IMG/VR virus record: IMGVR_UViG_2713896905_000008
Direction: 5' to 3' (one strand)
Source: a virus
Taxonomy: Duplodnaviria > Heunggongvirae > Uroviricota > Caudoviricetes
Length of the DNA stretch: 42,302 bases
Positions within the stretch are counted from its first letter, which is position 1; each line of letters opens with the position of its first letter. The notes beneath the pieces are model-generated. The model saw only the letters and a list, made by a program, of their open reading frames with translations, had not been told where the DNA came from and did no database searches. This document shows positions 1 through 41,194 of this stretch, one piece after another. The translations under genes were made by a program, and so were the position numbers.

Positions 1-759
1 TTAAATTCTGGTCCTTACAATATCAACCTGAAGATTCTTATCTTGTGCAGATTGATAAATGACAAATCTCTTATTTCCTGCATTAAAAGAAGTAGACAAA
101 ACCAGACAATTATCATAACGGGCAAGGACATAATACCAACCATCATTATAATTAATCATTTCATATTCTTTCTTAAACTGTGGTTTGTAATATCCTGTCA
201 GAAATGAAAAAAGCCAAAAGTATGCCACAAAAGAGACCATCACAATCTCAAAAAAATGTTTTTTTATAAATGGCTTATCATAAAAGCATGATACCGATAA
301 AAATCGCCCGTAAAATCTTATCGCAATTGTAACACCCAGTGCAATAGCAGCTGACAGTAGCAAAAGAGGTACCTGAATCTTCTGTCTCAATATAGAAAAC
401 TCAATAATAGCCGGTACAAACAATAATTCCACAGCAAAATAAAGGCGAAATACATTTAGCTCCTGCATAGAGTGTTTTCTTTTCACTGCGAAAAAAAATA
501 CAACGCCAACACCCCAGCCGATAAGAAATATAGCTATGACAATAACTGCAAAAAATAAACTTCTGGCAACATCATCAACACCAGCACCTACAATCCACCA
601 TGGAAAGCCGTAGTAAAAAGAAGTGCCCCAGCCATAGAAATAAGCACTCCCCCACCCAAGGCATCCCATGTAGGCAATAAAAAGTGAAGAACTCCTGAGC
701 AGCGCACCATCCTTCATAACCACCTCAAAACAAGATGATAACATTGATTTACAATTCAT
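1..759 (-). CDS. polytopic membrane protein of unknown function (accessory gene in prophage remnant)
   Basis: Complete 252-aa ORF with stop at 1-3. Translation is dominated by hydrophobic helices (FFAVIVIAIFLIGWGVGVVFFFAV, LLLLSAAIALGVTIAI, IVMVSFVAYFWLFSFL). A+T-rich by eye. No family recognised. Confidence 0.45.
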   Translation of the reverse strand: MNCKSMLSSCFEVVMKDGALLRSSSLFIAYMGCLGWGSAYFYGWGTSFYYGFPWWIVGAGVDDVARSLFFAVIVIAIFLIGWGVGVVFFFAVKRKHSMQELNVFRLYFAVELLFVPAIIEFSILRQKIQVPLLLLSAAIALGVTIAIRFYGRFLSVSCFYDKPFIKKHFFEIVMVSFVAYFWLFSFLTGYYKPQFKKEYEMINYNDGWYYVLARYDNCLVLSTSFNAGNKRFVIYQSAQDKNLQVDIVRTRI

Positions 760-1003
760 AACAAAAGCAATTCAATGCCGTCAAGAGGCTATAGGCTAAA
801 AAACTCTATTACATTGTAGTCAGCATGTTTACTGCACAAGTACAATTCAGAGCATAAAAAAAACCACTCGGCGGCGGGTTTATACATTTCTTATAACATA
901 TCAAATTTGCACAAAATACATGGCTTTCAATCCAGTTTTACAATATAAAACGTGCTTCATTACACCCCTGCATTCAGTAAATGTCTCAGACCTGTTTTTG
1001 ATG

Positions 1004-1246
1004 TCACTCCCACCAGTGATACCAGCTCCTGGTATTCATAGGTCTTACGTCCGCCAGTTCGTTCTTCACACCCTGTGCCGCCAGCCAGATTAACTTCTTC
1101 AGCCGCTCCAGTGTTTTACCTGCAATTTTTCGTGAGCCTGACAGAGCCTTAAACTCGCTCCATGTCCACTGCGTTATGGCAACCTGATGCTCCCAGCGAA
1201 CATTTTCACTGTAACTCCAAAAGAAGTTCTGCCATATAAGACTCAA
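1004..1246 (-). CDS. hypothetical protein (prophage remnant)
   Basis: 80-aa ORF downstream of rusA on the same strand. No motif recognised; may be a gene fragment. Confidence 0.2.
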   Translation of the reverse strand: MSLIWQNFFWSYSENVRWEHQVAITQWTWSEFKALSGSRKIAGKTLERLKKLIWLAAQGVKNELADVRPMNTRSWYHWWE

Positions 1247-1249
1247 ACA

Positions 1250-1675
1250 TCATTCATTCCCCAGTTCGGTGATGGTCAGTTCCAGCTTCCCATCTTTGGT
1301 AACAGGCATATTCACAACACGGTAATCAACGACCTGAGTATCATCCAGCCAGAAACCTGCTTTGGTGAGTGCATCAAAAGCGGCTTTTTGCAGATTATCC
1401 AGGTCACGGCGACGACGATCCGGCATATGGCACTCGATGCAGATTTTCACAGGAGTAACCAAACCCGATATCCAGCATTGAGTCTTTGATGATTCGGGCA
1501 ACGTTATCGCGGTATGCCTGCCCTTTTGCACTGATGTGCGTGCGCCCGCAATTATGCGATAGTAGCGATTATTGATCGACGGCCAGGGTAGTGTGATGTT
1601 GTAAGTATCCACACCTTGATTACCTCCTCTTTCAGCCAGATAACCAACTTTCTCGCCATACCTTCCTGTGCGCAC
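1250..1675 (-). CDS. rusA: RusA-family Holliday-junction resolvase, probably disrupted
   Basis: N-terminal [17 protein letters not shown] and C-terminal [38 protein letters not shown]...ELGNE match RusA as I recall it. The central ~31 codons match RusA only when read in another frame ([31 protein letters not shown]), implying two compensating frameshifts. True start is probably internal to the ORF-track span. Confidence 0.65.
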
Positions 1676-1857
1676 TCTTTTGCATACCCAGCGTCAACAA
1701 AGTGTGTGCGGTGATCGATGCTACATTTCACGTCTGAGTGCTGACTACTAACCAGTTCCACAATCTCAACACTGGTCATGGATGCCTTGTCGTTAAAAAT
1801 TTCTGTACTCACTCTTCCTCCTTTGGGATAAATTCTTTTGATAACGTGCGCATCCAC
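1552..1857 (-). CDS. YbcO-like (DUF1364-type) prophage protein, N-terminus atypical
   Basis: C-terminal [30 protein letters not shown] resembles the nin-region protein that precedes rusA in DLP12-type prophages. Overlaps rusA start as in that arrangement. Confidence 0.45.
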
Positions 1858-1930
1858 ACCTATTGGTGCCGAACCCGTCTTAAGTTATCCTTATGATTTA
1901 TATAAATAAAATAATCAAAGAAGGTTCGAC

Positions 1931-2182
1931 ATGGATTTTGCAACAATTACAAGTAGTGTTGTGTTGAGTGCATGTGTCGCAGGCCTGGCTTCGCTGATTA
2001 ATAGTGCCTGGCAGCGCAAATCAGAACGAAAAATTGAAGTAGAGCATCGGGCTGCAGAAACTCGGGCAAAAATCAGAGAAATGGCTCTTACCCTTGCATT
2101 GAAGGAATGGGAATCTCACCAGGCCGTATCGAAAGCTAAAGGCGGGACGGTCAGCGGCCCGGAAGTTTACGTATTTCGATAA
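1931..2182 (+). CDS. small membrane-anchored protein, unknown function
   Basis: 83-aa ORF with an N-terminal hydrophobic helix (ITSSVVLSACVAGLASLINSAW) followed by a charged helical region. Preceded by AAAGAAGG SD-like sequence. Confidence 0.3.
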   Translation: MDFATITSSVVLSACVAGLASLINSAWQRKSERKIEVEHRAAETRAKIREMALTLALKEWESHQAVSKAKGGTVSGPEVYVFR

Positions 2183-2633
2183 CTTCGTATGCTCAACTCG
2201 ATAGATTCATGATTGAGAATCTCAGACAGACTCAATACGACGCGATGTGCGCAGTCGCAGTGATTCAGGCAGAGATCGAGCGATATCGTGAGAAAAATGG
2301 GCTACTAATGCCATAACCACAGTCAGCGCTTGTCATCTTTCCAAATTCTCATATCAGACTTGCGCCCGATAAACCGACGAAAACTATTTAAAACCCATCG
2401 AGTGAAATAATCTCTAAAACCAAAGAGATACCAGGTGAAAATATTCACGATAAAATGCCCGGTCAGAGCCCCCGATACCGCATGCAAGAACAGTAAAAAA
2501 ATCATATGTGTTCATAAATATCAGCCCTCATCGTTTTGCCTGGCATATCCTTTACCGGCAATCTTCTGTATGCGCTAAGCCTGGATACCACATCACACTT
2601 GATTTAGATCTGTCACGGCGAACTGCCGTTCAA

Positions 2634-3134
2634 GATAAATGCGGGATGCTACTTGCTCTTGTTACTGGACAACGTTTAGGCGATATCTGCAATTTGAAAT
2701 TCTCTGATATCTGGGACGACATGTTGCACATTACTCAGGAAAAAACCGGTTCAAAACTTGCTATTCCGCTTAACCTGAAATGCGATGCTCTGAATATTAC
2801 CCTTCGTGAAGTTATATCTCAGTGCAGGGATGCTGTTGTTAGTAAATATCTGGTCCATTACCGTCACACAACCTCTCAAGCAAACAGAGGGGACCAGGTT
2901 TCTGCAAATACTCTGACAACGGCTTTTAAAAAGGCCAGGGAAAAATGTGGCATAAAATGGGAGCAAGGAACTGCGCCCACATTTCATGAGCAGCGATCTC
3001 TGTCAGAACGGTTATATCGGGAACAGGGTCTGGATACGCAAAAGTTGTTAGGTCATAAATCCAGAAAAATGACCGACCGATACAATGATGATCGTGGTAA
3101 AGACTGGGTTATCGTAGATATGAAAACAGCATAG
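2634..3134 (+). pseudogene. 5'-truncated tyrosine integrase (paralogue of the int at 41175-42302)
   Basis: Translation LLALVTGQRLGDICNLKFSDIWDD...HEQRSLSERLYREQGLDTQKLLGHKS...DRYNDDRGKDW aligns with the C-terminal ~165 aa of the full integrase at the window end. The N-terminal two-thirds are absent; the upstream ORF sequence is unrelated. Confidence 0.8.
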
Positions 3135-3144
3135 AAAATAGCCA

Positions 3145-3180
3145 GTTTTGGGGAAGGGTTTTGGGGAAAGTTTTGGGGAA
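3145..3180. repeat. three tandem copies of GTTTTGGGGAA between the truncated integrase and the icd terminator
   Basis: cagTTTTGGGGAAGGGTTTTGGGGAAAGTTTTGGGGAAga read directly. Confidence 0.7.
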
Positions 3181-3190
3181 GATTTTACAT

Positions 3191-3224
3191 CATCATAAAA
3201 CAACGGGCGTGTTATACGCCCGTT
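3191..3224 (-). terminator. intrinsic terminator following the icd 3' end
   Basis: Perfect stem AACGGGCG/CGCCCGTT with loop, followed on the minus strand by GTTTTAT. Lies about 20 nt past the icd-like stop. Confidence 0.6.
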
Positions 3225-3240
3225 TCAATATTTAACACAT

Positions 3241-3414
3241 GTAGTGATTACATATTCTTGATGATCGCGTCACCAAACTCTGAACATTTCAGCAGCTTAG
3301 CGCCTTCCATCAGACGTTCGAAGTCATAGGTTACGGTCTTCGCATTGATTGCGCCTTCCATACCTTTAACAATCAGGTCTGCGGCTTCAGTCCAGCCCAT
3401 ATGGCGCAGCATTA
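3241..3414 (-). pseudogene. icd: duplicated 3' end of isocitrate dehydrogenase gene (icdC-like att-site duplication)
   Basis: Minus-strand translation [54 protein letters not shown] is the Icd C-terminus. Homology stops abruptly at about 3414, where A+T-rich phage DNA begins. Confidence 0.85.
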
Positions 3415-3471
3415 GTTAGATAACTAAATCGTAACTATTTGACATAGCAGCATAATTTTACTAATTTGCAT

Positions 3472-3506
3472 ATAACTCATTAGCTCTTAGCATTTCCATA
3501 ACTCAT
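3472..3506. repeat. two direct copies of ATAACTCATT next to the att junction (candidate integrase arm-type sites)
   Basis: cATAACTCATTag at 3472 and cATAACTCATTga at 3497, within 100 bp of the icd/phage boundary. Confidence 0.35.
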
Positions 3507-3645
3507 TGATTATCAACATGTGTTTTTGAGTTTTGATAACCATTTTTAGCATAAAAATAGCAGTTAACATTTGCAGAAGTTAAGATCAGAGAAAATTTTT
3601 ACCCTGTAGGGTATTACGTCTTAAATGTGACTTTAATAAACAATT

Positions 3646-4479
3646 TTATTTCTGTAATCGATTTATATTAACGTAAAGCATCTCGATTAGTTCTTTTGCA
3701 TTTTTACTATAGTGCAATTCTCTATGGCAATTCGGACAAAGGGCAACACAGTTATCTGTTGTATCAGCACCACCTGAAGACAGGGGAATTACATGATGCA
3801 CTTCCAAGTATGGGCTTCCATCATTTAAATAAAACGGAGCATTTTTACCACAGTTTTCACATATACCTTTACTTTGCTGTAAAATCCAAGCTTTTACCAT
3901 CGGATCTCGGACATAAACTTTTTGTAGTCTTTCTACCTCAACTGGTTTCCTGGAGCCCTCGGGCTGACTCAACGTTTTCTTAATTAATTTACTAACCCTC
4001 ATATTCAGAAGCGATTCATCATCTGTAGGCTGAGAAAGCTCTGATAGTTCTCCACGTATTATAGACACCCAAAAACTGTCACTATAAATACCTGGAACAT
4101 TTATCAATATTCGTTTCGTTCTATTGCCGGAAGGAATTTCCTTTCTCCCCGTACGACTAAAATAAGCCTGATAACCACACATCTTCAAGCGTATATCGCG
4201 GGGGCTATTACCAATCAAAGTAAAATATTCACCAGGATGGATTTTTCTTTCATCCAAAGAATGCATATGTTTTCTGACTGATGATGACGCCAGATATACT
4301 ACGACTTGGGATACACCAGAATCAACCAACCGTTCAATGATATAATCAAGAGCGATATTGTAATCTTTGTTTCTGTCACCCGGCCCCCACGACTCAAGGA
4401 TTAGACCATAAACACCATCCTCTTCACCTATCAAACACTCAGCTTTCAGTTCAATTCCATTATTATCAAAAACATGCAT
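3646..4479 (-). CDS. mcrA: McrA, type IV 5-methylcytosine-specific restriction endonuclease (HNH)
   Basis: 277-aa translation matches E. coli McrA essentially end to end as I recall it (MHVFDNNGIELKAEC...CENCGKNAPFYLNDG...HHVIPLSSGGADTTDNCVALCPNCHRELH). Same position as in e14, next to pin. Confidence 0.9.
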   Translation of the reverse strand: MHVFDNNGIELKAECLIGEEDGVYGLILESWGPGDRNKDYNIALDYIIERLVDSGVSQVVVYLASSSVRKHMHSLDERKIHPGEYFTLIGNSPRDIRLKMCGYQAYFSRTGRKEIPSGNRTKRILINVPGIYSDSFWVSIIRGELSELSQPTDDESLLNMRVSKLIKKTLSQPEGSRKPVEVERLQKVYVRDPMVKAWILQQSKGICENCGKNAPFYLNDGSPYLEVHHVIPLSSGGADTTDNCVALCPNCHRELHYSKNAKELIEMLYVNINRLQK

Positions 4480-4585
4480 AATATTAATCTTTAATCAATT
4501 TTTTACGACAATACTACTTTTATTGATAAAATTGCAACAAGTTGCTGTTGTTTTATTTTCTTTTGTACACAAAGTGACTTTAACT

Positions 4586-5147
4586 TTATTTATCCCCTGC
4601 AGGAAACATCTTATACAAAGTTGACACACCAACATCATAGATGATCGCCACCTTCTGGCGAGGAACTCCTGATGCAATTAATCGTCCGGCCTGTTCCCAT
4701 TGTTCTGGTGTAAGTTTGGGACGACGTCCACCAATTCGTCCCTGTGCGCGAGCAGCTTCCAGTCCAGCTTTTGTTCGTTCAACAATCAGTTCACGCTCCA
4801 TTTCAGCCAGGGCACCCATCACATGAAAAAAAAAAGCGCCCCATTGGGGTACTGGTATCAATTGAATCCGTCAGACTACGAAAGTTAATGCCTCGTTCGC
4901 GCAACTCCTCCACCAGCACGACAAGATGCCGCATACTGCGCCCCAGTCGGTCCAGTTTCCAGACCACCAGCGTGTCACCTGCCAATAATGTCCTGAGCAG
5001 TTTTTTCAGTCCTGGTCTGTCGGACTTAGTTCCACTGATTTTATCCTCAAAAATCCGCTCACATCCCGCGCAGTTCAGTGCATTACGTTGCAAATCGGTG
5101 TTCTGGTCATTTGTTGACACGCGTACATAGCCAATAAGCATGATCAT
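4586..5147 (-). pseudogene. pin: Pin/Gin/Hin-family serine DNA invertase, interrupted by a +1 frameshift
   Basis: N-terminal ORF 4803-5147 (MLIGYVRVSTNDQNTDLQRNAL...SIDTSTPMGRFFF) and C-terminal ORF 4586-4861 (FFFHVMGALAEMEREL...) are consecutive parts of Pin. The frames diverge in an A10 run at 4826-4835; with nine A's the reading is continuous. Confidence 0.85.
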
Positions 5148-5168
5148 CCCTCTGAATAAAAACCAGAG

Positions 5169-5702
5169 ATGATGCCAGTTAGCCGTTATTTCTGCATTTT
5201 CATAAACGTTGGTTTGGGAGAAGGTTCGGCATTACCCGTTGGAGTGCCTGTTCCGTGGCCTTCTGCCACTCCGCCAACAGGCTGGCTGAAATGCAACGGT
5301 GCGGCATTTTCTGCTGAAGAATACCCGGAACTGGCAAAGGCTTATCCGGCAAATAAATTACCTGATTTACGCGGTGAGTTTATTCGTGGCTGGGATGACG
5401 GGCGTGGAGCTGACAGTGGTCGGGGATTATTAAGCTTTCAAAAAGCCACTCTGGTTGAAAGTTTTGGTCTGGTCAGATCACCAACCACTGGCTCTTATCG
5501 TCTGGTTACCAGACCGACAGAAACTGTTTCTGATAATACGTCTAACTATATGACGACTGATTATGATTCCCGTGAAGGTTTATATTCCCCTGCAACAGCA
5601 TACCCCTCTATCGAATTGCCACCAACTGGAGCAGGCGCAGGGGCTGGTTTTAGGGTTCGACCAAGGAATATTGCATTTAACTATATTGTGAGGGCTGCAT
5701 AA
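5169..5702 (+). CDS. alternative tail-fibre C-terminal domain (S'v-like), not joined to the constant region in this orientation
   Basis: Reads in frame through the hix-like site (INVGLGEGSA versus [10 protein letters not shown] in the expressed fibre). Followed by a Tfa-type gene. Confidence 0.7.
   Translation: MMPVSRYFCIFINVGLGEGSALPVGVPVPWPSATPPTGWLKCNGAAFSAEEYPELAKAYPANKLPDLRGEFIRGWDDGRGADSGRGLLSFQKATLVESFGLVRSPTTGSYRLVTRPTETVSDNTSNYMTTDYDSREGLYSPATAYPSIELPPTGAGAGAGFRVRPRNIAFNYIVRAA
5197..5222. promoter_or_regulatory. left recombination site of invertible segment (hix/gix-like, inverted relative to 7057-7082)
   Basis: Reverse complement TTCTCCCAAACCAACGTTTATGAAAA shares the half-site TTCTCCCAAACCAA with the site at 7057-7082. 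Presumed crossover dinucleotide at 5209-5210. Confidence 0.7.
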
Positions 5703-6304
5703 TGGATAACGCCATATTAAATAGCGAGATTATCGCCACCAAAGCAGGGAATATTACAGTATATAACTATGATAGTGAAACCCGGGAATATATTTCCACT
5801 TCAAATGAATATCTTGCTGTGGGTGTCGGTATTCCTGCATGTTCCTGTTTAGATGCACCAGGCACATATAAGGCTGGTTATGCTATCTGCCGTTCGATGG
5901 ATTTAAACTCATGGGAATATGTGCCAGACCATCGCGGTGAAATCGTCTATAACACCGAAACGGGAGACGCCAAAGAAATCACAACTCCGGGTGATTACCC
6001 CGAAAAAACAACCACTATCGCCCCGTTAACGCCATACGATAAATGGGATGGTGAGAAATGGGTGACGGATACCGAGGCACAGCATAGCGCCGCAGTAGAC
6101 GCGGCAGAAGCACAACGTCAGTCACTGATTGATACTGCAATGGCTTCCATTAGTCTGATTCAACTGAAATTGCAGGCCGGACGGAAGTTGACGCAGGCAG
6201 AAACAACCCGACTTAACGCCGTGCTGGATTACATTGACGCGGTGACGGTAACAGATACCAGCACCGCGCCGGATGTCATCTGGCCTGAACTGCCGGAGGC
6301 GTAG
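5702..6304 (+). CDS. tail fibre assembly protein (alternative copy, U'-like)
   Basis: 200 aa. C-terminal region (LQAGRKLTQAETTRLNAVLDYIDAVTVTDTSTAPDVIWPELPEA) is typical of the Tfa family and parallels the ORF at 6276-6719. Confidence 0.8.
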   Translation: MDNAILNSEIIATKAGNITVYNYDSETREYISTSNEYLAVGVGIPACSCLDAPGTYKAGYAICRSMDLNSWEYVPDHRGEIVYNTETGDAKEITTPGDYPEKTTTIAPLTPYDKWDGEKWVTDTEAQHSAAVDAAEAQRQSLIDTAMASISLIQLKLQAGRKLTQAETTRLNAVLDYIDAVTVTDTSTAPDVIWPELPEA

Positions 6305-6719
6305 GCCATTCAATATCTGGAGCACTGGAAGTATCGACCAGTTCCAGTGCGTCCAGATAATCCAGCCACAAATTATATTGCGCCAGTTCCTCACCTTTCA
6401 GACGACCAATAGCGGCTTTACCGGGCCATTGCTTACTGTTCATGTGTTCGTTGGCCTGATTAAGCAATAATTTTCTTTCTGATTCTGCCTGTTGAATAAG
6501 TTCTTCATGTGATGGTTGAGGTATTTCAGCCCATGTGGGAAAACCATTTACCCCTGCAACTCGGATTTTCCCTTGTGGCGGTTCCGCTATATATTTTACA
6601 GAAATGTTATCAGGAATATCTAATGCATCAGCGGGCCATGTTCCATTTACTTCATAAGTATTTTTTAAATTAACAGCATAAAATGCATTTTCCGAAGGGG
6701 AATAAATATATTGATTCAT
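6276..6719 (-). CDS. tail fibre assembly protein (U-like, in expressed orientation)
   Basis: 147 aa. C-terminus AIGRLKGEELAQYNLWLDYLDALELVDTSSAPDIEWPTPP is Tfa-like. Directly follows the tail-fibre gene. Confidence 0.8.
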   Translation of the reverse strand: MNQYIYSPSENAFYAVNLKNTYEVNGTWPADALDIPDNISVKYIAEPPQGKIRVAGVNGFPTWAEIPQPSHEELIQQAESERKLLLNQANEHMNSKQWPGKAAIGRLKGEELAQYNLWLDYLDALELVDTSSAPDIEWPTPPAVQAR

Positions 6720-6720
6720 A

Positions 6721-7359
6721 TTATCTTCCTATTGCGATAATCATAGTTCCATACAAACCATTTCCGGTTGATACTTTTAAGGTTACTGATGTCCTTGTTG
6801 TCGTGTACCCCATAAGTTTAAAGGTCGGAGCAGCCGTTAATGTGCCATCAGACCATAAGGCACTAACAGCCAGTGCACCTGAAGGAAATGCAATAGGGAA
6901 ATTACCAGTAGTTCCGTTAGTGTCCGCCCCATAAACATTCATCGAAAACATTTGAACAATATGACCACTTGGTAACTGAAACCAGTTTTTGCCAGATGGA
7001 AATGCAGACATATCTGGTATCTGATTTTCTCCTGTTCCCACATTCCGTTTTGCCGCTTCTCCCAAACCAAGGTTTTCGAGAGCCGTTTTCACCGTGCCAT
7101 CCGATTTGATATCGCCAAACGGATTATTGCGGCTTAACAGCAGCGCGCGAAGTGCGGTAAGCAACTGATCGTGCCGCCCCTTCTCCAGGCTGGCACCGGA
7201 TGCCTCCACCACGCTGCAAAGCTCCTCCTGCAACATGTCAAAGTAGTCATCATCCAGATCGGTGGCAGGCGTGCCGGTCTGGGGGTTACCACGGGTAAAA
7301 CCGTTCTTACCCGCGCCGAACTTATCCTTCTGCGCGGTTTTCGTGTCTATACGATGCAT
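6721..7359 (-). CDS. tail fibre protein (constant N-terminus joined to currently expressed variable C-terminus; stfP-like)
   Basis: 212 aa. The hix-like site lies in frame at ALENLGLGE. Sits between the gp48-like gene and tfa, as in e14 and Mu S. Confidence 0.8.
7057..7082. promoter_or_regulatory. right recombination site of invertible segment (hix/gix-like)
   Basis: TTCTCCCAAACCAAGGTTTTCGAGAG; imperfect dyad around a central AA, reminiscent of 26-bp hix/gix sites. Located inside the tail-fibre coding region. Confidence 0.7.
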
Positions 7360-7362
7360 GGA

Positions 7363-7947
7363 TTACTCCGGATATTTAAAAATTACGTAGGTATGCGACG
7401 GGCAGAGTTTGTTAAGCACACACTCGACAACGGTGTCACCCCAGATACGCAGTGCGGAATCACAGGGATCGCCACATGTCATCCAGGTGGTGTTGGCGGC
7501 GGCTGGCATGTTGACCTGCCAGTAATACCGCCATTCCGGCGCATTCACAGCGTCAGTACAGGCCGATGAGCAGGTGAACGTGCTTTTGTCGTATCGCGTG
7601 ATGGTGGCATCCGGTCTGCCCAGGGCAGCAAGCTGTGCAAGATAAAAATCCTCGTTGATGCCGCCCGCCAGGTTAACCTTCGCATCCAGCCGTTGCTGAC
7701 GCTGGCGAAGGGTCTGTGTCCCTGCGGGAATACATTCATCCGGCAGACCGCACAGACGCTCCCAGCGGTTTATCAGTTCATTGGTGGTGCGCGGATCCAG
7801 CTCCCGCATCAGGGCATCCGCACGCTGATGAACGCGGGTTAATGACGGTGCCGCACCGGCAATCGCCGGATCGCTGGCTGACCACGCCGGACCGGGGGGC
7901 AACAGTGCCGACAACAGACGGATGTAATCATCGTTTGTCACGTCCAT
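7363..7947 (-). CDS. Mu gp48-like tail protein (YmfQ-like, DUF2313-type)
   Basis: 194 aa, between the baseplate J-like gene and the tail fibre; this length and position match e14 ymfQ. Confidence 0.7.
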
Positions 7948-8996
7948 GAAATCGTCCCCAGTACCGCCAGTTCATTTTTTGCAATGGAGATATTGTCTGC
8001 CGGTGCAAGCAACTGATGGCTGTATTCCCCGTTCGCACCGGAAATCGCCTCACTGATACGCGATACCTTCAGTTCTCCCTGCGGATAACCATCACGCAGC
8101 AGGAACGAACGCAACTCCGCGGTAATGGCAGCCCGTATTTCCGGTGTGTCCGGCGTCACACGGATATGAAAATCCACCGTATGTGCCACCGGCCTGAATA
8201 CATACAAATCAGAGCCTGCCACCGGGGCCAGTGGCCCGATATGTTGTCTTGCTGCCGTTTCCGTTGATTCTTCCGGAATGGGATTAATCAGGTCACTGCT
8301 GGCAATCATCACACCGACAGTTCCCGTTCCCATCCAGTGACGGTATGTCCATGCGCGGGTAATGCCGGGCACTTCTTTAGCCCAGACGACATAGTCCCCG
8401 TCAGCCCCGCCCTGAGGCGTCCAGTAATACCGCTCAATGACGCGGGCGCGCCACGTTTCCAGCTCTTCAGTATCAAATCCACCTGTCAGGGTATCTGCCA
8501 CGCCGGAAGACGGCAGACCATTAACCGGCGTGACCAGGATTAATGCCGTACCGTCGTCAGCGTTACCGACCGCGCCTGCACTTGAGCAGGCGATCGGCAC
8601 GCGCAGGACACCACCGGAGCTGGTTGCATCGGCAGTTGCCGTGTACTGAACCAGGTCATCGCGCTGAATAACACTCCCGGCGGTCACCTTCAGGCCATCG
8701 CTGACACCTTCCCAGCGCATATACCCGCTGGCAGCCGTGGCCCCCTTGCGCGGACACCGTTTCATCGCAGCATGTCGCGCCAGCCAGGACTCATCGCACA
8801 GGTCAGGCAGCATGTTCATTGCCAGATAATCGATGTATCCGTAAACCGTATGCAGCGCCGCCGCATACACCTTTGCCCGCACGTCTTCATCCATGCGCCG
8901 GAGCGTGTCGCTGACGTCCAGCCTGGCGAATAAATCGTTACGGAGCATACTGATATTTTCTGCCAGCGTCGGGCGCTGAAATTCACTGTCCGCCAT
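7938..8996 (-). CDS. baseplate J-like protein (Mu gp47-like)
   Basis: 352 aa; position in the Mu-like baseplate gene order. Confidence 0.75.
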
Positions 8997-9411
8997 GCGT
9001 TATCGCACTCCACAGATCATCAAAAGAAATCATTACCGGTCCGTCACGACGCCAGAGAGTGATACTGTTACCCAGTTCATTAATCCCGGTGCGGCGGATA
9101 TCCAGATCAATACGGGACACCACGCCGTCATCAATCATCCATTGCAGGCATTCGCGGATATACCCCCTTACCGTCAGCACCAGCTGATTGGTCAGTTTGC
9201 TGCGCTGAAGCAGCCACAGCCGGGAGCCGTAACGGTCATTCTGTACCGCAGGCCAAGTATCCCCCCACCATCCCATCGGGACGTCGGCGTTGTCATCAGG
9301 CTCCGCCCGCCGCCAGGTAAACAGGGAAATCACCACGGCGCGGGTCAGCGGATCCAGCGGTGCGCTGGCGCAGGTGCGTTTACCGTTCACCGTCAGCCAC
9401 AGTTCCATCAT
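8983..9411 (-). CDS. baseplate protein, Mu gp46-like
   Basis: 142 aa between the gp45-like and gp47-like genes with overlapping stops and starts. Confidence 0.6.
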   Translation of the reverse strand: MMELWLTVNGKRTCASAPLDPLTRAVVISLFTWRRAEPDDNADVPMGWWGDTWPAVQNDRYGSRLWLLQRSKLTNQLVLTVRGYIRECLQWMIDDGVVSRIDLDIRRTGINELGNSITLWRRDGPVMISFDDLWSAITHGGQ

Positions 9412-9956
9412 GCCTCCATCGCTTTATCCGGTTTGTCGGTGTTACTGCCCTGACCGTTCTCTCTGTGACGATGCCCGTTATAGGCAAGCCGCATCGCTGA
9501 CATGGTGGTGCCGCCGGAGTCGCACAGGTCTTTCACCTGTCCTGTCACTTCCAGGTCCATTTCAAAACGTGCTTTAGGTGAATTGCGAAACGTGATCGTT
9601 TTACCTGCACCGTCCACCACGATCCCCTCCCGGGTCAGCGTCACGGACTGCCCCTGATCGTCATAGACCGCCACCTCACCCGTCTGCAGCCCTTTCAGGC
9701 GGTAGCGCCGGTCCGACACCGTAACAACCACCGCATGAGAACGGTCGCCATCCGGAAACAACACCACCGCTTCCGCACCGCTGTTTGCCCTTGCGGTAAA
9801 ACCGTAGGGTTCAAGATGTTCAACCCCGGCTTTGGGTTCACCGGCAATCAGGGACACATCCACGGTCTGACATTTCGTGGCGGCACTGATGCTTTTCACC
9901 ACTGCCCGCCCAATCAGGCCGAGAAGTTGTCGCTGCATGGCTTCAATCGTCCTCAT
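9408..9956 (-). CDS. baseplate assembly protein V / spike (Mu gp45-like)
   Basis: 182 aa; position after the hub-like gene; translationally coupled. Confidence 0.65.
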   Translation of the reverse strand: MRTIEAMQRQLLGLIGRAVVKSISAATKCQTVDVSLIAGEPKAGVEHLEPYGFTARANSGAEAVVLFPDGDRSHAVVVTVSDRRYRLKGLQTGEVAVYDDQGQSVTLTREGIVVDGAGKTITFRNSPKARFEMDLEVTGQVKDLCDSGGTTMSAMRLAYNGHRHRENGQGSNTDKPDKAMEA

Positions 9957-11035
9957 CAGAACGGGTCCTCCTGTACTCTGGCTTTTTTCTTTTTCCGCGC
10001 GCCGGGGTCTTCAGGTTCAGGCAGATAAGCATCAGGCGGGCCGACACGGATTTCCGTCAGGGTGCCGTTCTGGTCCTGAGTAAACGTGACTTCCGAAACA
10101 AGCAGTTCGGTATTGTCAAAACCACAGACCGGATCAAAGACAATCACCCGCTGGTTGGGTTGCCACAGCGTACCGTTACCCTGTCGCCAGCCCTGCACCA
10201 CATAGGTGGTTTCATCCGTCCGCGCCGCCCGTTGCCGGGCTTCAAAGTCAGCACGCGCAATACAGCCTGCCCCCGTAGCCTGCCCTGTCTGCCTGATATA
10301 CATCGGACGGTAACGGGCAATAAATGCGTCCTCTGTGCGGGCCCGCAGCGCGGTGGTGGTGGCCTCACCGAAATCATCGTCGTTTCCGGCACGCTGCCCC
10401 GCCACCTGGTAAACAGAAAACCGCTCCCGGATACTCTTCTCCGTATCGCAGGAAAGGATGTTTTCCCCAAGTACCAGCGCGGTATGTGCCCGCGTTGAGC
10501 CAATACCACCAATCACCAGCCTGCCGTGCGGGTCGTCGTAAGCCAGCGCCTGCTGCTGACCGAGTATTTTGTTGATCACCTCAATCACCGTTTCACCGTG
10601 ATCAGGCTGGACATCAGGAATAACACCCGACGGCGCACCGCTGTTCACCACCTCAATGCCGAAAGGCGCAGCAAGCGCCTGCGCAATCTGTACCAGCGAT
10701 CGTCCGTTAAACTGTGTCGGTTCGGCTGCACAGTCAATCAGGTCAGCGGTCAGACTACGTCCGGCAATACCGGTGCTGACCGAACGGGCATCGTAACGAA
10801 CGGGCGTCGCCTCCACCCAGCCGGTGATCACCAGCTCATCACCAATCAGCACCTCCACTTTTGAACCGTTTTTAATGCGCGACTGAAGCGTGGTAATACC
10901 CTCATCTCCCGGCCACTGGCGGGTGATCTCCACACTGAAATCCCGCGCCAGTCGTTCAACACCGGCACCGATGCGCACCGATGTCCAGCCATTCCACTCC
11001 CGGCCATTTACCCGTAGCGTGACGTTATCGTTCAT
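9956..11035 (-). CDS. baseplate hub / late-control D-like protein (Mu P, gp44-like)
   Basis: 359 aa with N-terminal TLRVNGREW motif and C-terminal lysine-rich tail; position after the DNA-circulation gene. Confidence 0.7.
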   Translation of the reverse strand: MNDNVTLRVNGREWNGWTSVRIGAGVERLARDFSVEITRQWPGDEGITTLQSRIKNGSKVEVLIGDELVITGWVEATPVRYDARSVSTGIAGRSLTADLIDCAAEPTQFNGRSLVQIAQALAAPFGIEVVNSGAPSGVIPDVQPDHGETVIEVINKILGQQQALAYDDPHGRLVIGGIGSTRAHTALVLGENILSCDTEKSIRERFSVYQVAGQRAGNDDDFGEATTTALRARTEDAFIARYRPMYIRQTGQATGAGCIARADFEARQRAARTDETTYVVQGWRQGNGTLWQPNQRVIVFDPVCGFDNTELLVSEVTFTQDQNGTLTEIRVGPPDAYLPEPEDPGARKKKKARVQEDPF

Positions 11036-11057
11036 TGCACTGGCACCTTCAGAGGGA

Positions 11058-12329
11058 TCACCGGCACAAAGCCGGGATGCGTAATGGCATTACGCCGGAT
11101 AATGTCCGCGTCACGCGCCGCGTTATCAAACCAGGTCGCCGCCAGCACCAGCGCGGGTAAAACCTCACCCGGCGCAGCGCCAGAAACAGCGCATCACTGG
11201 TTGTACGGGACAACTCCTTATCAATTGCCGTATTCAGTGTGTCGCGAATGTCGGTCAGTTCTTCCCACGTTGGCAGGTCAACCGTGTTTTTCACCGCCGG
11301 TGCATTGTTCAGTGCCGGATGCGTGACAGAAGGCCAGCCGGTGCTCTGCGCGGGTGTTGTTGACTGCCCCACTGTGGCATTCTGCATCACCGCGGAAGTT
11401 GTGGGCGCAGGCAATCGTGTGACGGCATACGCCGCTTCGCTGATTGCGGTCGTACGAAGGGTGCTGGCAACCACGTTACGCTGCTGCGTCGCCGTGGCGG
11501 TGGTTTTACTGTCCGTTTTCCAGACGCCGCGCGGTTGCAGATCGCTGCCGAGGCTGACACCGGAAAGCGTTTTGATCATGGTGACCAGGTCGCTGGCGTT
11601 ACCATAAAGGCGTTTCCCGGTACGCCACATTTTCTGCACCTGCTCAACGAAATTTTTGCCTGACGATGGCGGCGGCAGAAGTACCGAGATATCCCCCTGC
11701 AACAGCCTGGCGGCATCCGATACGGCAGAATCCACCACTTTCATCGCATCAGAAACATACCCAAGCATTGTGCTGGCATTACCGACGACGTCGTTCTGCA
11801 CAAAATCTGCCACGCCATCGATACTGAAACCACTGAAGCTGTCACTGATGCAGTCATCCAGTGCAGAACAGGATGACATCAGCGTCTGCGCCGTCGCCGC
11901 ACCTGAAGTGGGGTAAGAGAGTTCTCCCGCTTCGACAAACTTCAGGTCAAAGCGGACAATACGCCCTTCACTCTTCGATGTGCTGACCCGAACTTCCCCG
12001 TCAACACAGACTTTCAGCTCACCGTAAGTCGGATGGACAAGCGTGCCGGGACCGGGTTTATTCAGCGCGTCAATCAGGCGATCGCGCTGGTCAAAGCAGT
12101 CATCTCCCACCACATAAGCTGTGATGGACGGGCGGAAAGTGATTTTCCCCAGGTCTTCGGTATAGGGTTTGTCGCGGTTCGGATATTCGTGTGTTTCCAC
12201 ACGACGGCCGGTTCCCGCACTTTCTTCTTCAACCTTAAACGGCACACCGCGAAATGACGCGTCCTGAAGTCTGTCTTTCCACGTCATATAAACTCCGTAC
12301 ATAAAAAATCCCACCGGAGTGGGACTCAT
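11058..12329 (-). CDS. DNA circulation protein (Mu N, gp43-like)
   Basis: About 410 aa downstream of the tape measure gene. N-terminal WKDRLQDASFRGVPFKVEEES is characteristic. Start is probably an internal Met. Confidence 0.65.
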   Translation of the reverse strand: MSPTPVGFFMYGVYMTWKDRLQDASFRGVPFKVEEESAGTGRRVETHEYPNRDKPYTEDLGKITFRPSITAYVVGDDCFDQRDRLIDALNKPGPGTLVHPTYGELKVCVDGEVRVSTSKSEGRIVRFDLKFVEAGELSYPTSGAATAQTLMSSCSALDDCISDSFSGFSIDGVADFVQNDVVGNASTMLGYVSDAMKVVDSAVSDAARLLQGDISVLLPPPSSGKNFVEQVQKMWRTGKRLYGNASDLVTMIKTLSGVSLGSDLQPRGVWKTDSKTTATATQQRNVVASTLRTTAISEAAYAVTRLPAPTTSAVMQNATVGQSTTPAQSTGWPSVTHPALNNAPAVKNTVDLPTWEELTDIRDTLNTAIDKELSRTTSDALFLALRRVRFYPRWCWRRPGLITRRVTRTLSGVMPLRIPALCR

Positions 12330-38976: not shown

Positions 38977-39339
38977 ATGGCTAGCGAACGCAGTACTGAT
39001 GTGCAGGCATTTATCGGGGAGCTGGACGGCGGCGTATTTGAAACCAAAATCGGTGCAGTTCTCAGTGAAGTCGCTTCCGGTGTGATGAACACGAAAACCA
39101 AAGGTAAGGTCTCACTCAACCTGGAAATCGAACCATTTGATGAGAACCGTGTGAAAATCAAACACAAACTCTCATATGTTCGCCCGACTAACCGCGGGAA
39201 AATTTCCGAAGAAGACACCACCGAAACGCCGATGTATGTCAATCGCGGTGGTCGCCTGACTATTCTGCAGGAAGACCAGGGACAATTACTGACTCTTGCC
39301 GGTGAACCTGACGGAAAACTCCGCGCAGCAGGTTATTAA
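38977..39339 (+). CDS. YfdP-like early protein
   Basis: 120 aa from MASERSTDV with GAGGAG SD 7 nt upstream; precedes a YfdQ-like gene. Confidence 0.5.
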   Translation: MASERSTDVQAFIGELDGGVFETKIGAVLSEVASGVMNTKTKGKVSLNLEIEPFDENRVKIKHKLSYVRPTNRGKISEEDTTETPMYVNRGGRLTILQEDQGQLLTLAGEPDGKLRAAGY

Positions 39340-39404
39340 TATCGTTCTTAATTAACTGATTATTTACCTCATCACTGAATATCTTTATATAGTGAGGACT
39401 TATT

Positions 39405-40229
39405 ATGTCTCAGAACTTAGACGCAACCGCAATTAATCAAATCCATGCCCTTATTTCTGCTCAGGGTGTTAATGAAATTATCAGTAAGATTGGTGCCGAC
39501 GCAGTGGCATTACCTGAAAATTTCCGCATTCATGATCTGGAAAAATTTAATTTAAATCGCTTCCGTTTCCGTGGTGCGCTTTCCACTGCCAGCATCGATG
39601 ACTTTACCCGTTATTCTAAAGATCTTGCAGATGAAGGCACCCGCTGCTTTATCGATGCCGATAATATGCGAGCCGTCAGTGTGCTTAACCTAGGCACTAT
39701 TGATGAACCTGGTCATGCAGATAACACCGCCACTCTCAAACTGAAAAAGACAGCACCGTTCTCTGCTCTGTTGTCTGTTAATGGCGAGCGTAACTCCCAG
39801 AAGTCACTGGCAGAATGGATTGAAGACTGGGCCGACTACCTTGTAGGCTTTGATGCTAATGGTGACGCTATTCAGGCAACAAAAGCGGCTGCGGCTGTCC
39901 GTAAAATCACGATTGAAGCAAACCAGACCGCTGATTTTGAAGATAATGACTTCAGCGGAAAACGCTCCCTGATGGAGTCTGTCGAAGCGAAGACCAAAGA
40001 TATTATGCCAGTGGCATTTGAATTTAAATGCGTTCCGTTTGAAGGTCTGAAAGAACGTCCGTTTAAATTACGCCTCAGCATTATCACTGGCGATCGTCCT
40101 GTACTGGTTCTGCGCATTATTCAGTTGGAAGCAGTCCAGGAAGAAATGGCTAACGAATTTCGTGATCTGCTTGTTGAGAAATTCAAAGACAGCAAAGTAG
40201 AAACCTTTATTGGTACTTTCACCGCCTGA
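39405..40229 (+). CDS. yfdQ: YfdQ-like protein (DUF2303-type)
   Basis: 274 aa; size and position as in the yfdP-yfdQ-yfdR arrangement of the CPS-53 prophage; assignment by family from memory. Confidence 0.5.
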
Positions 40230-40241
40230 TTTCATTACTGC

Positions 40242-40263
40242 AAATGCCCCTGCGGGGGCATTT
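40242..40263 (+). terminator. stem-loop after the yfdQ-like gene (possible intrinsic terminator or attenuator)
   Basis: AAATGCCCC-tgc-GGGGGCATTT perfect hairpin 13 nt after the stop; weak U-tract. Confidence 0.35.
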
Positions 40264-40329
40264 ATGGAAACGTAATTTACTCAATAATCGCCGGATGGTA
40301 AGGGATTCTTTTTACCAGAATTCAGCGCG

Positions 40330-40893
40330 GTGCAGGGCATATACGTGGAGAACAAAATGTCATTTATTAAAACTTTTTCCGGGAAGCATTTTTATTATGA
40401 CAAGATAAATAAAGATGACATCGTTATTAACGATATCGCGGTTTCCCTTTCAAATATCTGTCGTTTTGCAGGACATCTTTCACACTTCTACAGCGTCGCC
40501 CAACATGCGGTGCTTTGCAGCCAGCTGGTACCGCAGGAATTTGCTTTTGAAGCGTTAATGCATGATGCAACAGAAGCATATTGCCAGGACATCCCCGCAC
40601 CACTGAAACACCTTCTTCCTGACTATAAACGGATGGAAGAAAAAATAGACGCCGTAATCCGTGAGAAATACGGGTTACCCCCAGTTATGAGTACGCCCGT
40701 GAAATATGCCGATCTCATCATGCTGGCAACCGAACGCCGCGATCTCGGACTTGATGATGGCTCTTTCTGGCCTGTACTGGAAGGTATCCCGGCAACAGAG
40801 ATGTTCAAAGTGATTCCACTGGCACCGGGTCATGCCTACGGAATGTTTATGGAACGATTTAAAGAGCTGCATAAGATACATAAACAATCCTGA
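40330..40893 (+). CDS. yfdR: HD-domain phosphohydrolase (YfdR-like 5'-deoxynucleotidase)
   Basis: HD motifs SVAQHAVLC and LMHDATEAY; likely start at MSFIKTF. Confidence 0.65.
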   Translation: MQGIYVENKMSFIKTFSGKHFYYDKINKDDIVINDIAVSLSNICRFAGHLSHFYSVAQHAVLCSQLVPQEFAFEALMHDATEAYCQDIPAPLKHLLPDYKRMEEKIDAVIREKYGLPPVMSTPVKYADLIMLATERRDLGLDDGSFWPVLEGIPATEMFKVIPLAPGHAYGMFMERFKELHKIHKQS

Positions 40894-40933
40894 CAGCGAA
40901 ATTAACTAGTGAAATAGTTTTGTAGCAAAAGAA

Positions 40934-41194
40934 ATGAGGTTATCAAAAATGCTTCAAATGCTGACACTTGAGGAATGGGCTGCGGAAAAATTTAGGAGTA
41001 ATCCTCCAAGTGTGTCCACATTGCGTCGTTATGCTAAGCAGAATTTATTTTGTCCACCAGCAATGAAACAAGGTCGACTCTGGCGAGTACGTGAGGACGC
41101 AGAGTTAGTTGGGGAATTAGTTACTCCTGTCATCAAGAAAAGTGATTCTATTATTCTACAAAGGATTTTAAGTAATGGCAGCCAGACCACGTAA
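40934..41194 (+). CDS. xis: excisionase (lambda Xis-like)
   Basis: 86 aa; LTLEEWAAEKF...STLRRYAKQNLFCPPAMKQGRLWRVREDAEL parallels lambda Xis; overlaps the int start. Confidence 0.75.
   Translation: MRLSKMLQMLTLEEWAAEKFRSNPPSVSTLRRYAKQNLFCPPAMKQGRLWRVREDAELVGELVTPVIKKSDSIILQRILSNGSQTT

Follow-up and report, generated by a model that had tools for sequence, protein, structure and literature searches.

Organization of the left end of the window

The DNA analyzed here (hereafter the window, i.e., the whole stretch of 42,302 nucleotides of IMG/VR record IMGVR_UViG_2713896905_000008) carries two groups of phage genes separated by a fragment of icd, the isocitrate dehydrogenase gene (Table 1). The right-hand group is an e14-like prophage whose gene calls, with their Pfam families, were taken from relatives and which also holds Mu-like tail and baseplate genes. 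The left-hand group occupies about 3.4 kb and ends with a truncated integrase gene (int′) followed by the icd fragment (icd′).

Table 1. Features of the window, with strand and supporting evidence
Feature	Position	Strand	Evidence
Intact 252-aa membrane-protein gene, lambdoid "moron" downstream of Q; leftmost visible part of the remnant	1-759	-	phrog_1521, E = 2.7e-150
Antiterminator Q, internal fragment (pseudogene)	947-1246	-	PF06323, model 102-164/220 only
rusA pseudogene (ORF open)	1250-1675	-	Pfam RusA, model 49-123/124 only
ybcO-like fragment, nin region	1552-1857	-	PF07102 (YbcO), E = 0.0078, model 54-91/92 only
Scraps of lambdoid early and nin regions, up to the deletion junction with int′	1860-2636		DNA matches to lambdoid prophages
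int′, C-terminal 166 codons of a phage-21-type tyrosine integrase	2637-3134	+	97-98.6% DNA identity to int of phages 21, ev017, 4A7, 3W and 1W, from 2637 exactly
Three arm-type integrase-binding repeats TTTTGGGGAAR (P′ arm of phage 21 attP)	3146-3181	+	Exact matches
icd transcription terminator and downstream sequence, phage-carried copy	3195-3247	-	Terminator annotated there in the phage 21 record
icd′, last 54 codons and stop of isocitrate dehydrogenase (165 bp)	3248-3412	-	PF00180, model 301-348/348
e14-like prophage	3413-42302, then ~1.3 kb beyond the window to functional icd		e14 junction and E. coli identities
mcrA	3646-4479	-	e14-like prophage
pin, frameshifted	4586-5147	-	e14-like prophage
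xis	40934-41194	+	e14-like prophage
intE, intact	41175-42302	+	Arm-DNA-bind_1 and PF00589

The order of the left-hand features (int′, nin-region pieces, ybcO′, rusA′, Q′ and moron) is collinear with that of a lambdoid prophage, int′ being on the + strand and the ybcO′, rusA′, Q′ and membrane-protein genes on the - strand. This region is phage-derived; it is not the ordinary chromosome that, according to the original prediction, would have been fatal to its reading. The content that it had listed (a nin region with ybcO-like and rusA genes, and a membrane-protein gene) is real and the membrane-protein ORF is intact, but the decay is worse than it had described. The Q fragment shows 88% identity to the full-length Q of Escherichia coli O157:H7 PV15-279 and 77% to a partial Q pseudogene of E. 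coli A10. In rusA, whose positions 1285-1645 share 89.5% DNA identity with rusA of A10, about 35 central codons are out of frame through two compensating frameshifts: three-frame translation finds the RusA-like middle in a frame other than that of both ends. The YbcO match is weak (16.6 bits, under the Pfam cut-off of 29.9). Further right, a phage ORF of 131 aa has been truncated to 83 aa (1931-2182, + strand; phrog_36733, positions 1-83/131); in L013, a strain carrying the remnant alone, it still has 131 aa. Positions 1913-2505 are 83% identical to a prophage ORF of E. coli M8, and positions 2329-2587 are 92% identical to sequence adjoining ninE in many E. coli lambdoid prophages. No immunity, replication, lysis or structural module was found in positions 1-2636. 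At the other end, positions 1-946 share 93.5% DNA identity with phage 434, and the record of this phage has a putative membrane protein at the same place; the membrane-protein gene differs from that of phage 434 by 41 nucleotides and 11 amino acids, and from that of L013 by three nucleotides and no amino acid.

The remnant extends about 650 bp to the left of the window, and sequence shared with the type strain of Escherichia albertii resumes 651 bp left of position 1. A search of 8 kb to the left detected neither icd-like sequence nor a distal attR of the old prophage. Since no further icd fragment lies within this distance, the distal end of the old prophage has probably been lost; its far boundary is a putative one, drawn from strain comparison only.

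A phage-21-type integrase and attachment module

The original prediction had proposed that the integrase fragment, which it started at 2634, is related to but diverged from the intact integrase encoded at the right end. The start was right within 3 nt, as DNA homology to full-length integrase genes begins at 2637, and the relationship is clear: in BLASTP, the product of ORF 2508-3134 aligns with residues 216-375 of the 375-aa intact protein with 109/160 identities (68%, E = 5e-80). At the DNA level, int′ matches full-length int of E. coli A10 and O157 with 97.9% identity. Its homology starts at codon ~215 of 380, so the N-terminal arm-binding and core-binding parts are deleted. Accordingly, it retains the PF00589 catalytic domain alone (model 20-168/172) and lacks the Arm-DNA-bind_1 domain that precedes PF00589 in the intact integrase. 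A functional phage-21-type module has an integrase with arm-binding, core-binding and catalytic domains; with its catalytic domain alone, int′ is a remnant of this family and not a working member. The 208-aa ORF that uses the GTG start at 2508 had no match in an exact-protein look-up, and the 162-aa version starting at an ATG (2646-3134) had one. A 24-mer spanning the truncation junction of int′ was absent from species-representative genomes in a contig scan. The zero differences in int′ between several strains could suggest selection; this was rejected, since zero differences in 776 bp fits the 0.3% divergence of the core flank and since int′ of contig L019 bears an additional indel of 11 columns and its ORF is shorter.

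The sequence that follows int′ is that of a phage 21 attachment module. Over positions 2637-3414, DNA identity reaches 97.0% with phage 21 (OL657228), 97.9% with AF017626 and 98.6% with ev017. The arm-type repeat occurs three times as an exact match compared to 0.10 expected by chance, a count reached by none of 100 shuffles, and the phage 21 record states at the same place that "attP consists of 3 subsites P1P2P3; consensus YYTTCCCCAAAA". This record also annotates an icd pseudogene in the matching region. The last 165 bp of icd and its terminator are element-borne at 3195-3412, and the stretch 3195-3247 also occurs past icdC in e14 lysogens of E. coli. icd′ begins 113 bp past the stop codon of int′, a spacing that is the same in lysogens carrying full-length int.

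The original prediction would have failed if the fragment belonged to a family with a different target. Its full-length relatives adjoin icd: the 380-aa int gene and icd are immediate neighbours in E. coli A10 and O157:H7 PV15-279 and likewise in four other contigs (L009, L012, L015 and L016), and the same int with a phage-borne icd 3′ end is found in the free phages 21, ev017, 4A7 and others.

Homology to phage 21 attP, to the 21-type attL of E. coli and to icd of L013 stops in all three cases at 3412 (within 2 nt), and e14 attR DNA begins at 3413. This junction (...GGCGCAGCAT|TAGTTAGAT at 3412/3413) coincides to the nucleotide with that of the e14 attR in E. coli EC05. The last codon of the window is the stop codon of the intact integrase gene. 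icd′ is 100% identical to the 3′ end of intact icd in L013, and the 219 bp at 3194-3412 share 90.4% identity with the 3′ end that e14 supplied to functional icd in contig L029. We conclude that icd′ is a 21-type 3′ end displaced by the e14-like insertion and is now the bacterial-side arm of the e14-like attR. Its 21-type origin is deduced from its contiguity with int′ and the arm sites, since SNPs assign it to no type: the 216 bp of icd′ and terminator differ by four changes from one E. coli icdC, by 7-13 from 21-type copies and by 13-26 from e14-type copies. Typing icd′ as 21-type, e14-type or chromosomal by these 4-26 differences was rejected as not diagnostic, no clean grouping being obtained.

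Two probable successive integrations at one site

The same tandem structure is present in independent assemblies from NCBI, ENA and Logan (L010, L011/L017, L014, L018, L019 and L020). The whole order can be read from a 508-kb contig, which matches both ends of the window with 99.98% identity: ymg genes, omptin gene, remnant, icd′, e14-like prophage, intE, a gene encoding a 256-aa protein, intact icd and rluE. The second icd copy whose existence had been predicted beyond the window is thus found in this contig as an intact 416-codon gene, about 1.3 kb downstream of the intact integrase gene and after the 256-aa gene. In contig L029, whose sequence matches the final 4.3 kb of the window at 99.98% identity, intE precedes the 256-aa gene and then intact icd encoding 416 aa. 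Both integrase genes had been said to read towards a copy of the icd 3′ end; this is right for the fragment within the window and for the intact gene as well, but the copy facing the latter lies outside the window. In strain L013, the remnant alone stands against an intact icd, with 98.9% identity to the window over 1-3412 and 100% over 2637-3412.

The host flank was assigned to E. albertii by a contig scan with a conserved ymgD 26-mer, and this species is probably the host. The junction joining the 21-type int′, icd′ and mcrA is present in none of 5426 complete E. coli genomes, and no account of such an arrangement in E. albertii came up in literature searches.

Taken together, these data are best explained by two integrations in succession at one icd attachment site, the older element having later decayed: the left 3.4 kb (1-3414) would be the stump of a phage-21-type lambdoid prophage that predates the e14-like insertion. 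We put the probability of this reading at about 0.9. The proposal of two related icd-targeting phages in tandem is supported by the icd specificity of the int′ family, the phage origin of the left region and the precise e14 attR junction between the two parts. The proposal that the older one had decayed is supported by the remnant-only state of L013 and by the order int′-icd′-[mcrA...intE]-icd. This order also indicates that the 21-like phage came first and the e14-like one second, since the only route to it is the entry of the e14-like element into an icd already bearing the 21-type 3′ end.

The following sequence of events can be proposed. A lambdoid phage with a phage-21-type int-attP module would have entered icd, as suggested by the topology and supported by the remnant-only strain; its own 165-bp icd 3′ end and terminator would have replaced those of the host, leaving icd intact with int immediately downstream. 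The sequence shows that an internal deletion then joined int codon ~215 to nin-region DNA; with it went xis, together with the genes for recombination, immunity and replication. Of the remaining genes, Q, rusA and ybcO were reduced to fragments or frameshifted, the lysis and structural genes and probably the distal attR were lost, and a single intact membrane-protein gene was left. Finally, the junction sequences show that the same position of functional icd was entered by an e14-like phage with an IntE-type integrase of 68% identity, acting on the same core; this phage brought a third version of the icd 3′ end and pushed the 21-type 3′ end with int′ to the far (mcrA) side.

It is highly improbable that the remnant and the e14-like prophage came together, as one mosaic element or within an imported chromosomal block. 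Such a common arrival would agree with their co-occurrence in most of the assemblies found and with the fact that both parts come nearer to E. coli, at 93-98% to its phage DNA, than the host core genes, which reach 93.4% at most. However, it accounts neither for L013, where the remnant is alone beside intact icd, nor for the internal att-derived icd fragment whose precise e14 attR junction divides the two parts. Furthermore, the 5′ part of icd and the flanks are of host type in the tandem strain: this part of icd shows two differences in 1086 bp compared to L013, without amino-acid change, and the core flank is 99.7% identical to that of L013 over 6.5 kb. An e14-like element integrated before a 21-like phage is extremely unlikely. 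All that speaks for this order is the core shared by the two integrases, which in principle allows either succession. It would place int21 beside functional icd, and the displaced fragment would be expected at the intE/cargo end of e14. The opposite is observed, int′ abutting the displaced fragment at the mcrA end and intE with the cargo gene abutting functional icd, and this gene order excludes it. As for a false join at the repeated icd 3′ sequence, its probability is close to nil: a 219-bp repeat could in principle mislead short-read assemblers, but the two copies have only 90.4% identity, the junction recurs in six or more independent assemblies drawn from three sources, and the int′-arm sites-icd′ block is contiguous in free phage genomes.

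Mobility and comparison with known elements

Having neither N-terminal integrase domains, xis nor a second att site, the remnant cannot move. The e14-like element may still excise, as it has intact xis and int genes and flanking 219-bp direct repeats, and its excision would restore the remnant-only configuration. L013 could derive from a tandem strain by such an excision and not be an ancestor, which leaves the order implied by the topology unchanged. The shared junction had also been predicted to support recombination between the elements. This claim is weak: homologous recombination between int′ and intE was rejected, the two genes being ~61% identical at the nucleotide level and nowhere identical over more than 11 nt, and the only plausible substrates are the icd repeats flanking the e14-like element, which would serve its own excision. 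It is very unlikely that the hybrid attR, with its three phage-21 arm-type sites and an open 162-aa ORF (2646-3134) encoding only a catalytic domain, alters integrase behaviour at icd. If it did, it could hinder excision of the e14-like element, or block or redirect the integration of incoming 21-like phages. Separately, and with as little probability, the intact membrane-protein gene (1-759) could be a domesticated gene whose retention explains the persistence of the stump in E. albertii.

The remnant shares with the phage 21 module (OL657228; phages ev017, 4A7, 3W and 1W; prophages of A10 and O157:H7) the succession of int 3′ end, three arm-type repeats, terminator and 165-bp icd copy. It differs from it by keeping only 166 of 380 integrase codons and by the deletion of xis and of everything between int and the nin region; furthermore, its icd fragment is the outer arm of the attR of another prophage and does not lie beside functional icd. 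The e14-like element has the same attR junction as e14 of E. coli K-12 and full-length e14-like prophages, with 98% identity at its mcrA-pin end (3195-4600, to mcrA/icdC/pinE) and 96% DNA identity at its other end (39300-42302, to the yfdP-yfdQ-yfdR-xisE-intE loci). The e14-like prophages of E. coli likewise have a variable cargo slot between intE and icd; the cargo here is the 256-aa protein, which has no assigned family, and the host is probably E. albertii instead of E. coli. Beyond attR lie the displaced icd fragment and then the 21-type int′ and arm sites, whereas in E. coli this side is host chromosome (iraM). The element is also larger, with ~40 kb and a full tail module compared to 15 kb for e14 of K-12 (PMC13626634).

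Like tandem arrays at a shared attB, the locus holds two elements that have related integrases, use one core site and are separated by an internal att-derived repeat. Unlike in a full array, one member is a non-mobile stump whose distal att is apparently missing, and two of the three expected att-derived sites were found: the internal one (3195-3412) and the int-proximal one (seen in L029), the third being absent from the 8 kb searched to the left. The use of one attB by both phage 21 and e14 has been known since 1997, according to the citation of Wang et al. (1997, J Bacteriol 179:5705) in PMC12803456. icd is one of the prophage hotspots most often occupied, and its 3′ end is duplicated on integration (PMC3603311; PMC6379469). 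The arrangement is ordinary, being the expected outcome where two phages use one site, and its significance beyond annotation is small. It nevertheless offers a natural clean case of one intragenic attachment site used in turn by two related integrases, in which the order of events can be read from the topology. For annotation, positions 947-3134 should be marked as prophage pseudogenes, and no second functional integrase should be called there. Finally, icd is an MLST locus and each integration swaps its last 165 bp; therefore, in E. albertii as in E. coli, the icd 3′ end can carry phage-derived polymorphisms.

Two icd-targeting prophages in tandem

The gene layout of the window, taken from the ORF listing and from direct reading of the sequence, is summarized in the following table.

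Features of the window relevant to the arrangement at icd
Feature	Position	Strand	Basis or remark
Membrane-protein ORF, 252 aa	1-759	minus	ORF listing
Short decayed ORFs	between membrane-protein ORF and int'		ORF listing
int', integrase-like ORF, resemblance in the C-terminal 160 residues	ends 3134	plus	ORF listing
Spacer, 113 bp	between int' stop and icd'		ORF listing
icd', last 54 codons of isocitrate dehydrogenase	3248-3412	minus	PF00180 C-terminus match (Pfam)
mcrA, then pin	3646-4479 (mcrA)		e14-like end; ORF listing
xis and 375-aa integrase closing the long prophage	41175-42302 (integrase)		the window closes with its stop codon

The original prediction proposed that two related icd-targeting phages were integrated in tandem and that the older one decayed. 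The observation is confirmed, and this interpretation is supported, with refinements, by the junctions, the gene order and a strain carrying the remnant alone (L013). The integrase fragment is related to, but diverged from, the intact integrase, as had been claimed (68% identity over 160 residues, E=5e-80); Pfam recognizes only the catalytic domain in int' and both arm-binding and catalytic domains in the intact protein. Both integrases were also said to face a copy of icd: this holds within the window for int', and the icd faced by the intact one lies beyond the window.

Window 2637-3414 shares 97.0-98.6% identity with the free phages 21, ev017, 4A7, 3W, 1W and Perceval (megablast, phage genomes), in which the region is annotated as integrase and isocitrate dehydrogenase fragment. 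In the curated record of phage 21, int and a 165-bp icd pseudogene are separated by a terminator and three arm subsites of attP (consensus YYTTCCCCAAAA), and TTTTGGGGAAR is found in three exact copies at 3146-3181 of the window (chance expectation 0.1). Nothing points to a different target site for this integrase family: in E. coli A10 and O157:H7 PV15-279, a full-length 380-aa homologue of int' adjoins icd, likewise with a spacing of 113 bp, and each locus is 97.9% identical to window 2637-3412. The identity to phage 21, the arm repeats and these homologues show that int' belongs to the phage-21 integration module, which targets icd. In two E. coli-type contigs carrying a full 21-like prophage at icd (L009 and L012), gene calling splits the integrase into ORFs of 200 aa and 162 aa within the normal 1143 nt, and the 162-aa protein is identical to int' of the window. 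Disrupted 21-type integrases are therefore also present in otherwise complete prophages.

Order of integration and recombination

In an alignment of six att-type sequences, the junction of the window reads CATATGGCGCAGCAT on its left side and TAGTTAGATAAC on its right side. On the right, the sequence is e14 DNA shared with attR of E. coli EC05; on the left, it runs on as icd both in lysogens of the 21 and e14 types and in L013. The homology to phage 21 attP ends at most 2 nt from the junction point. Such a pattern is the sequence-level signature of two elements sharing one core.

Related contigs were retrieved by exact-protein look-up from independent NCBI, ENA and Logan assemblies. GCA_001514905.1 (L018) is 100% identical to window 1-12182. 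A single 508-kb contig of GCA_032538145.1, 99.98% identical to both window ends, carries successively an autotransporter gene, ymgI/ymgD/ymgF, an omptin gene, the remnant, icd', the e14-like prophage, intE, a gene encoding 256 aa, an intact 416-aa icd and rluE-nudJ-mnmA-hflD-purB-phoPQ; the second icd copy sought beyond the window is present in this contig. The last 219 bp of the functional icd are 90.4% identical to window 3194-3412, with six differences in the 165 coding bases that leave the amino acids unchanged, and its remaining 1086 bp differ from L013 at two positions. Comparison with the icd region of other strains revealed that in L013 (Logan SRR23495214), the remnant alone lies directly against an intact icd (98.9% identity over window 1-3412, 100% over 2637-3412).

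Had the 21-type phage integrated first, int would have come to lie beside the functional icd, which would then owe its 3' end to the phage. A second element entering at this core would have pushed the 21-type 3' end, together with the adjoining int, to the far end of the incoming element. The arrangement of the window is exactly the one expected for this order. Were the e14-like element the first and the 21-like one the second, int21 should lie beside the functional icd and the displaced fragment at the intE/cargo end; neither is seen, making this reverse order highly improbable. The 21-type-first order is consistent with L013, whether this strain is ancestral or an excisant.

The proposal that the shared junction could support recombination between the elements has little in its favour. 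Minimal processing segments for RecA-dependent exchange measure roughly 20-30 bp. The integrase genes share about 61% nucleotide identity and, since their longest identical run is 11 nt, are unfit for efficient exchange of this type. The 219-bp icd repeats flank the e14-like element only and would be substrates for its own Int/Xis excision; e14 of K-12 is excised by Int/Xis at icd repeats (PMC13626634; PMC6379469). Insertion of 21 and e14 at the same attB is the finding announced in the title of Wang et al. (1997, J Bacteriol 179:5705, cited in PMC12803456), and icd is among the most occupied prophage hotspots, its 3' end being duplicated by integration (PMC3603311). Since the shared attB and the icd hotspot are published and our literature search found no description of this tandem arrangement in E. 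albertii, the arrangement is a new instance of a well-understood situation.

Decay of the older prophage and host

The left part, predicted to be a nin-region remnant (ybcO-like, rusA) plus a membrane-protein gene, is indeed made of collinear lambdoid pieces rather than ordinary chromosome. Nearest the att site lies int', followed leftward by nin-region scraps, ybcO', rusA', Q' and the membrane-protein moron, as on the lambdoid map, with int and Q on opposite strands. Q' is an internal piece (model positions 102-164 of 220, Pfam), the Pfam match of RusA is limited to its C-terminal half and ybcO' is a fragment below the Pfam threshold. The rusA frame (1250-1675) is open, with about 35 central codons out of frame between two compensating frameshifts (three-frame translation); gene callers disagree on its length (58 or 120 aa, depending on the assembly). 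Window 2329-2587 is 92% identical to DNA adjoining ninE in E. coli prophages, and 1913-2505 is 83% identical to a prophage ORF. The membrane-protein gene is intact and 93.5% identical to phage 434 (41 nt and only 11 aa differences), with three synonymous changes relative to L013.

The left flank of L018 and a contig of the E. albertii type strain are 99.0% identical as far as L018:7419, where they part. This point lies 651 bp to the left of window position 1; therefore, the remnant reaches slightly past the left end of the window. A sensitive blastn search found no second icd-like sequence in 8 kb further left, and the distal attR and late genes of the old prophage appear to be lost. Decay is still under way: the ORF at 1931-2182 encodes 83 aa in the window versus 131 aa in L013 and one contig (L019) has an additional indel in int'. 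Compared with L013, L010 and L024, window 760-2636 shows 18-36 differences per 1877 bp, concentrated in the decayed Q-rusA-nin stretch and partly clustered (e.g. 1646-1649 and 1132-1140), whereas the membrane-protein ORF has 0-3 and int'-icd' has none. This excess could result from relaxed constraint or from gene conversion by other lambdoid prophages.

The window carries no core gene, and its host, assigned via identical or near-identical contigs, is probably Escherichia albertii. Among 5426 complete E. coli genomes, none exceeds 93.4% identity to the L013 core flank (from icd to purB) and none carries the int21'-icd'-mcrA junction; the left flank of L018 is 99.0% identical to E. albertii NBRC 107761. 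In this lineage (L018:1-8070), the next genes after the remnant are an omptin (OmpT-like) gene and, beyond it, ymgF-ymgD-ymgI. The iraM-ycgX-bluR-bluF segment, located downstream of icdC in E. coli EC05 and extending to ycgG on the K-12 map, is absent from this flank. Some 170-230 bp before window position 1 (L018:7840-7900), a 7-bp tandem repeat (CCTCCAG) accounts for a 35 bp length difference between the otherwise identical L017 and L018.

The e14-like prophage

The mcrA-icdC-pinE end of e14-type elements in many E. coli matches window 3195-4600 at 98% identity, and their yfdP-yfdQ-yfdR-xisE-intE end matches 39300-42302 at 96%. In these E. coli elements, variable cargo separates intE from icd (a DUF262 pair in RM7190, Dam and an AAA ATPase in GF131). 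In L029, a contig that continues past intE to icd, this slot encodes a 256-aa protein (L029:9339-10109, about 0.2-1.0 kb right of the window end) for which no Pfam family was found. The slot looks like a variable site for accessory or defence genes.

In pin (4586-5147), a run at about 4817-4826 holds ten A's, one too many, which breaks the gene into ORFs of 91 and 114 aa; with nine A's at this place, pin of the near-identical contig L017 is intact (184 aa). The break may be a genuine loss of function, the mark of a slippage-prone tract or a sequencing error in the homopolymer. Beside pin, window 5204-6000 (tail-fibre and tail-fibre-assembly genes) is in reverse orientation in L010, L019 and L020 (blast) and corresponds to the expected Pin-invertible host-range segment, which would be locked in the window if the pin frameshift is real.
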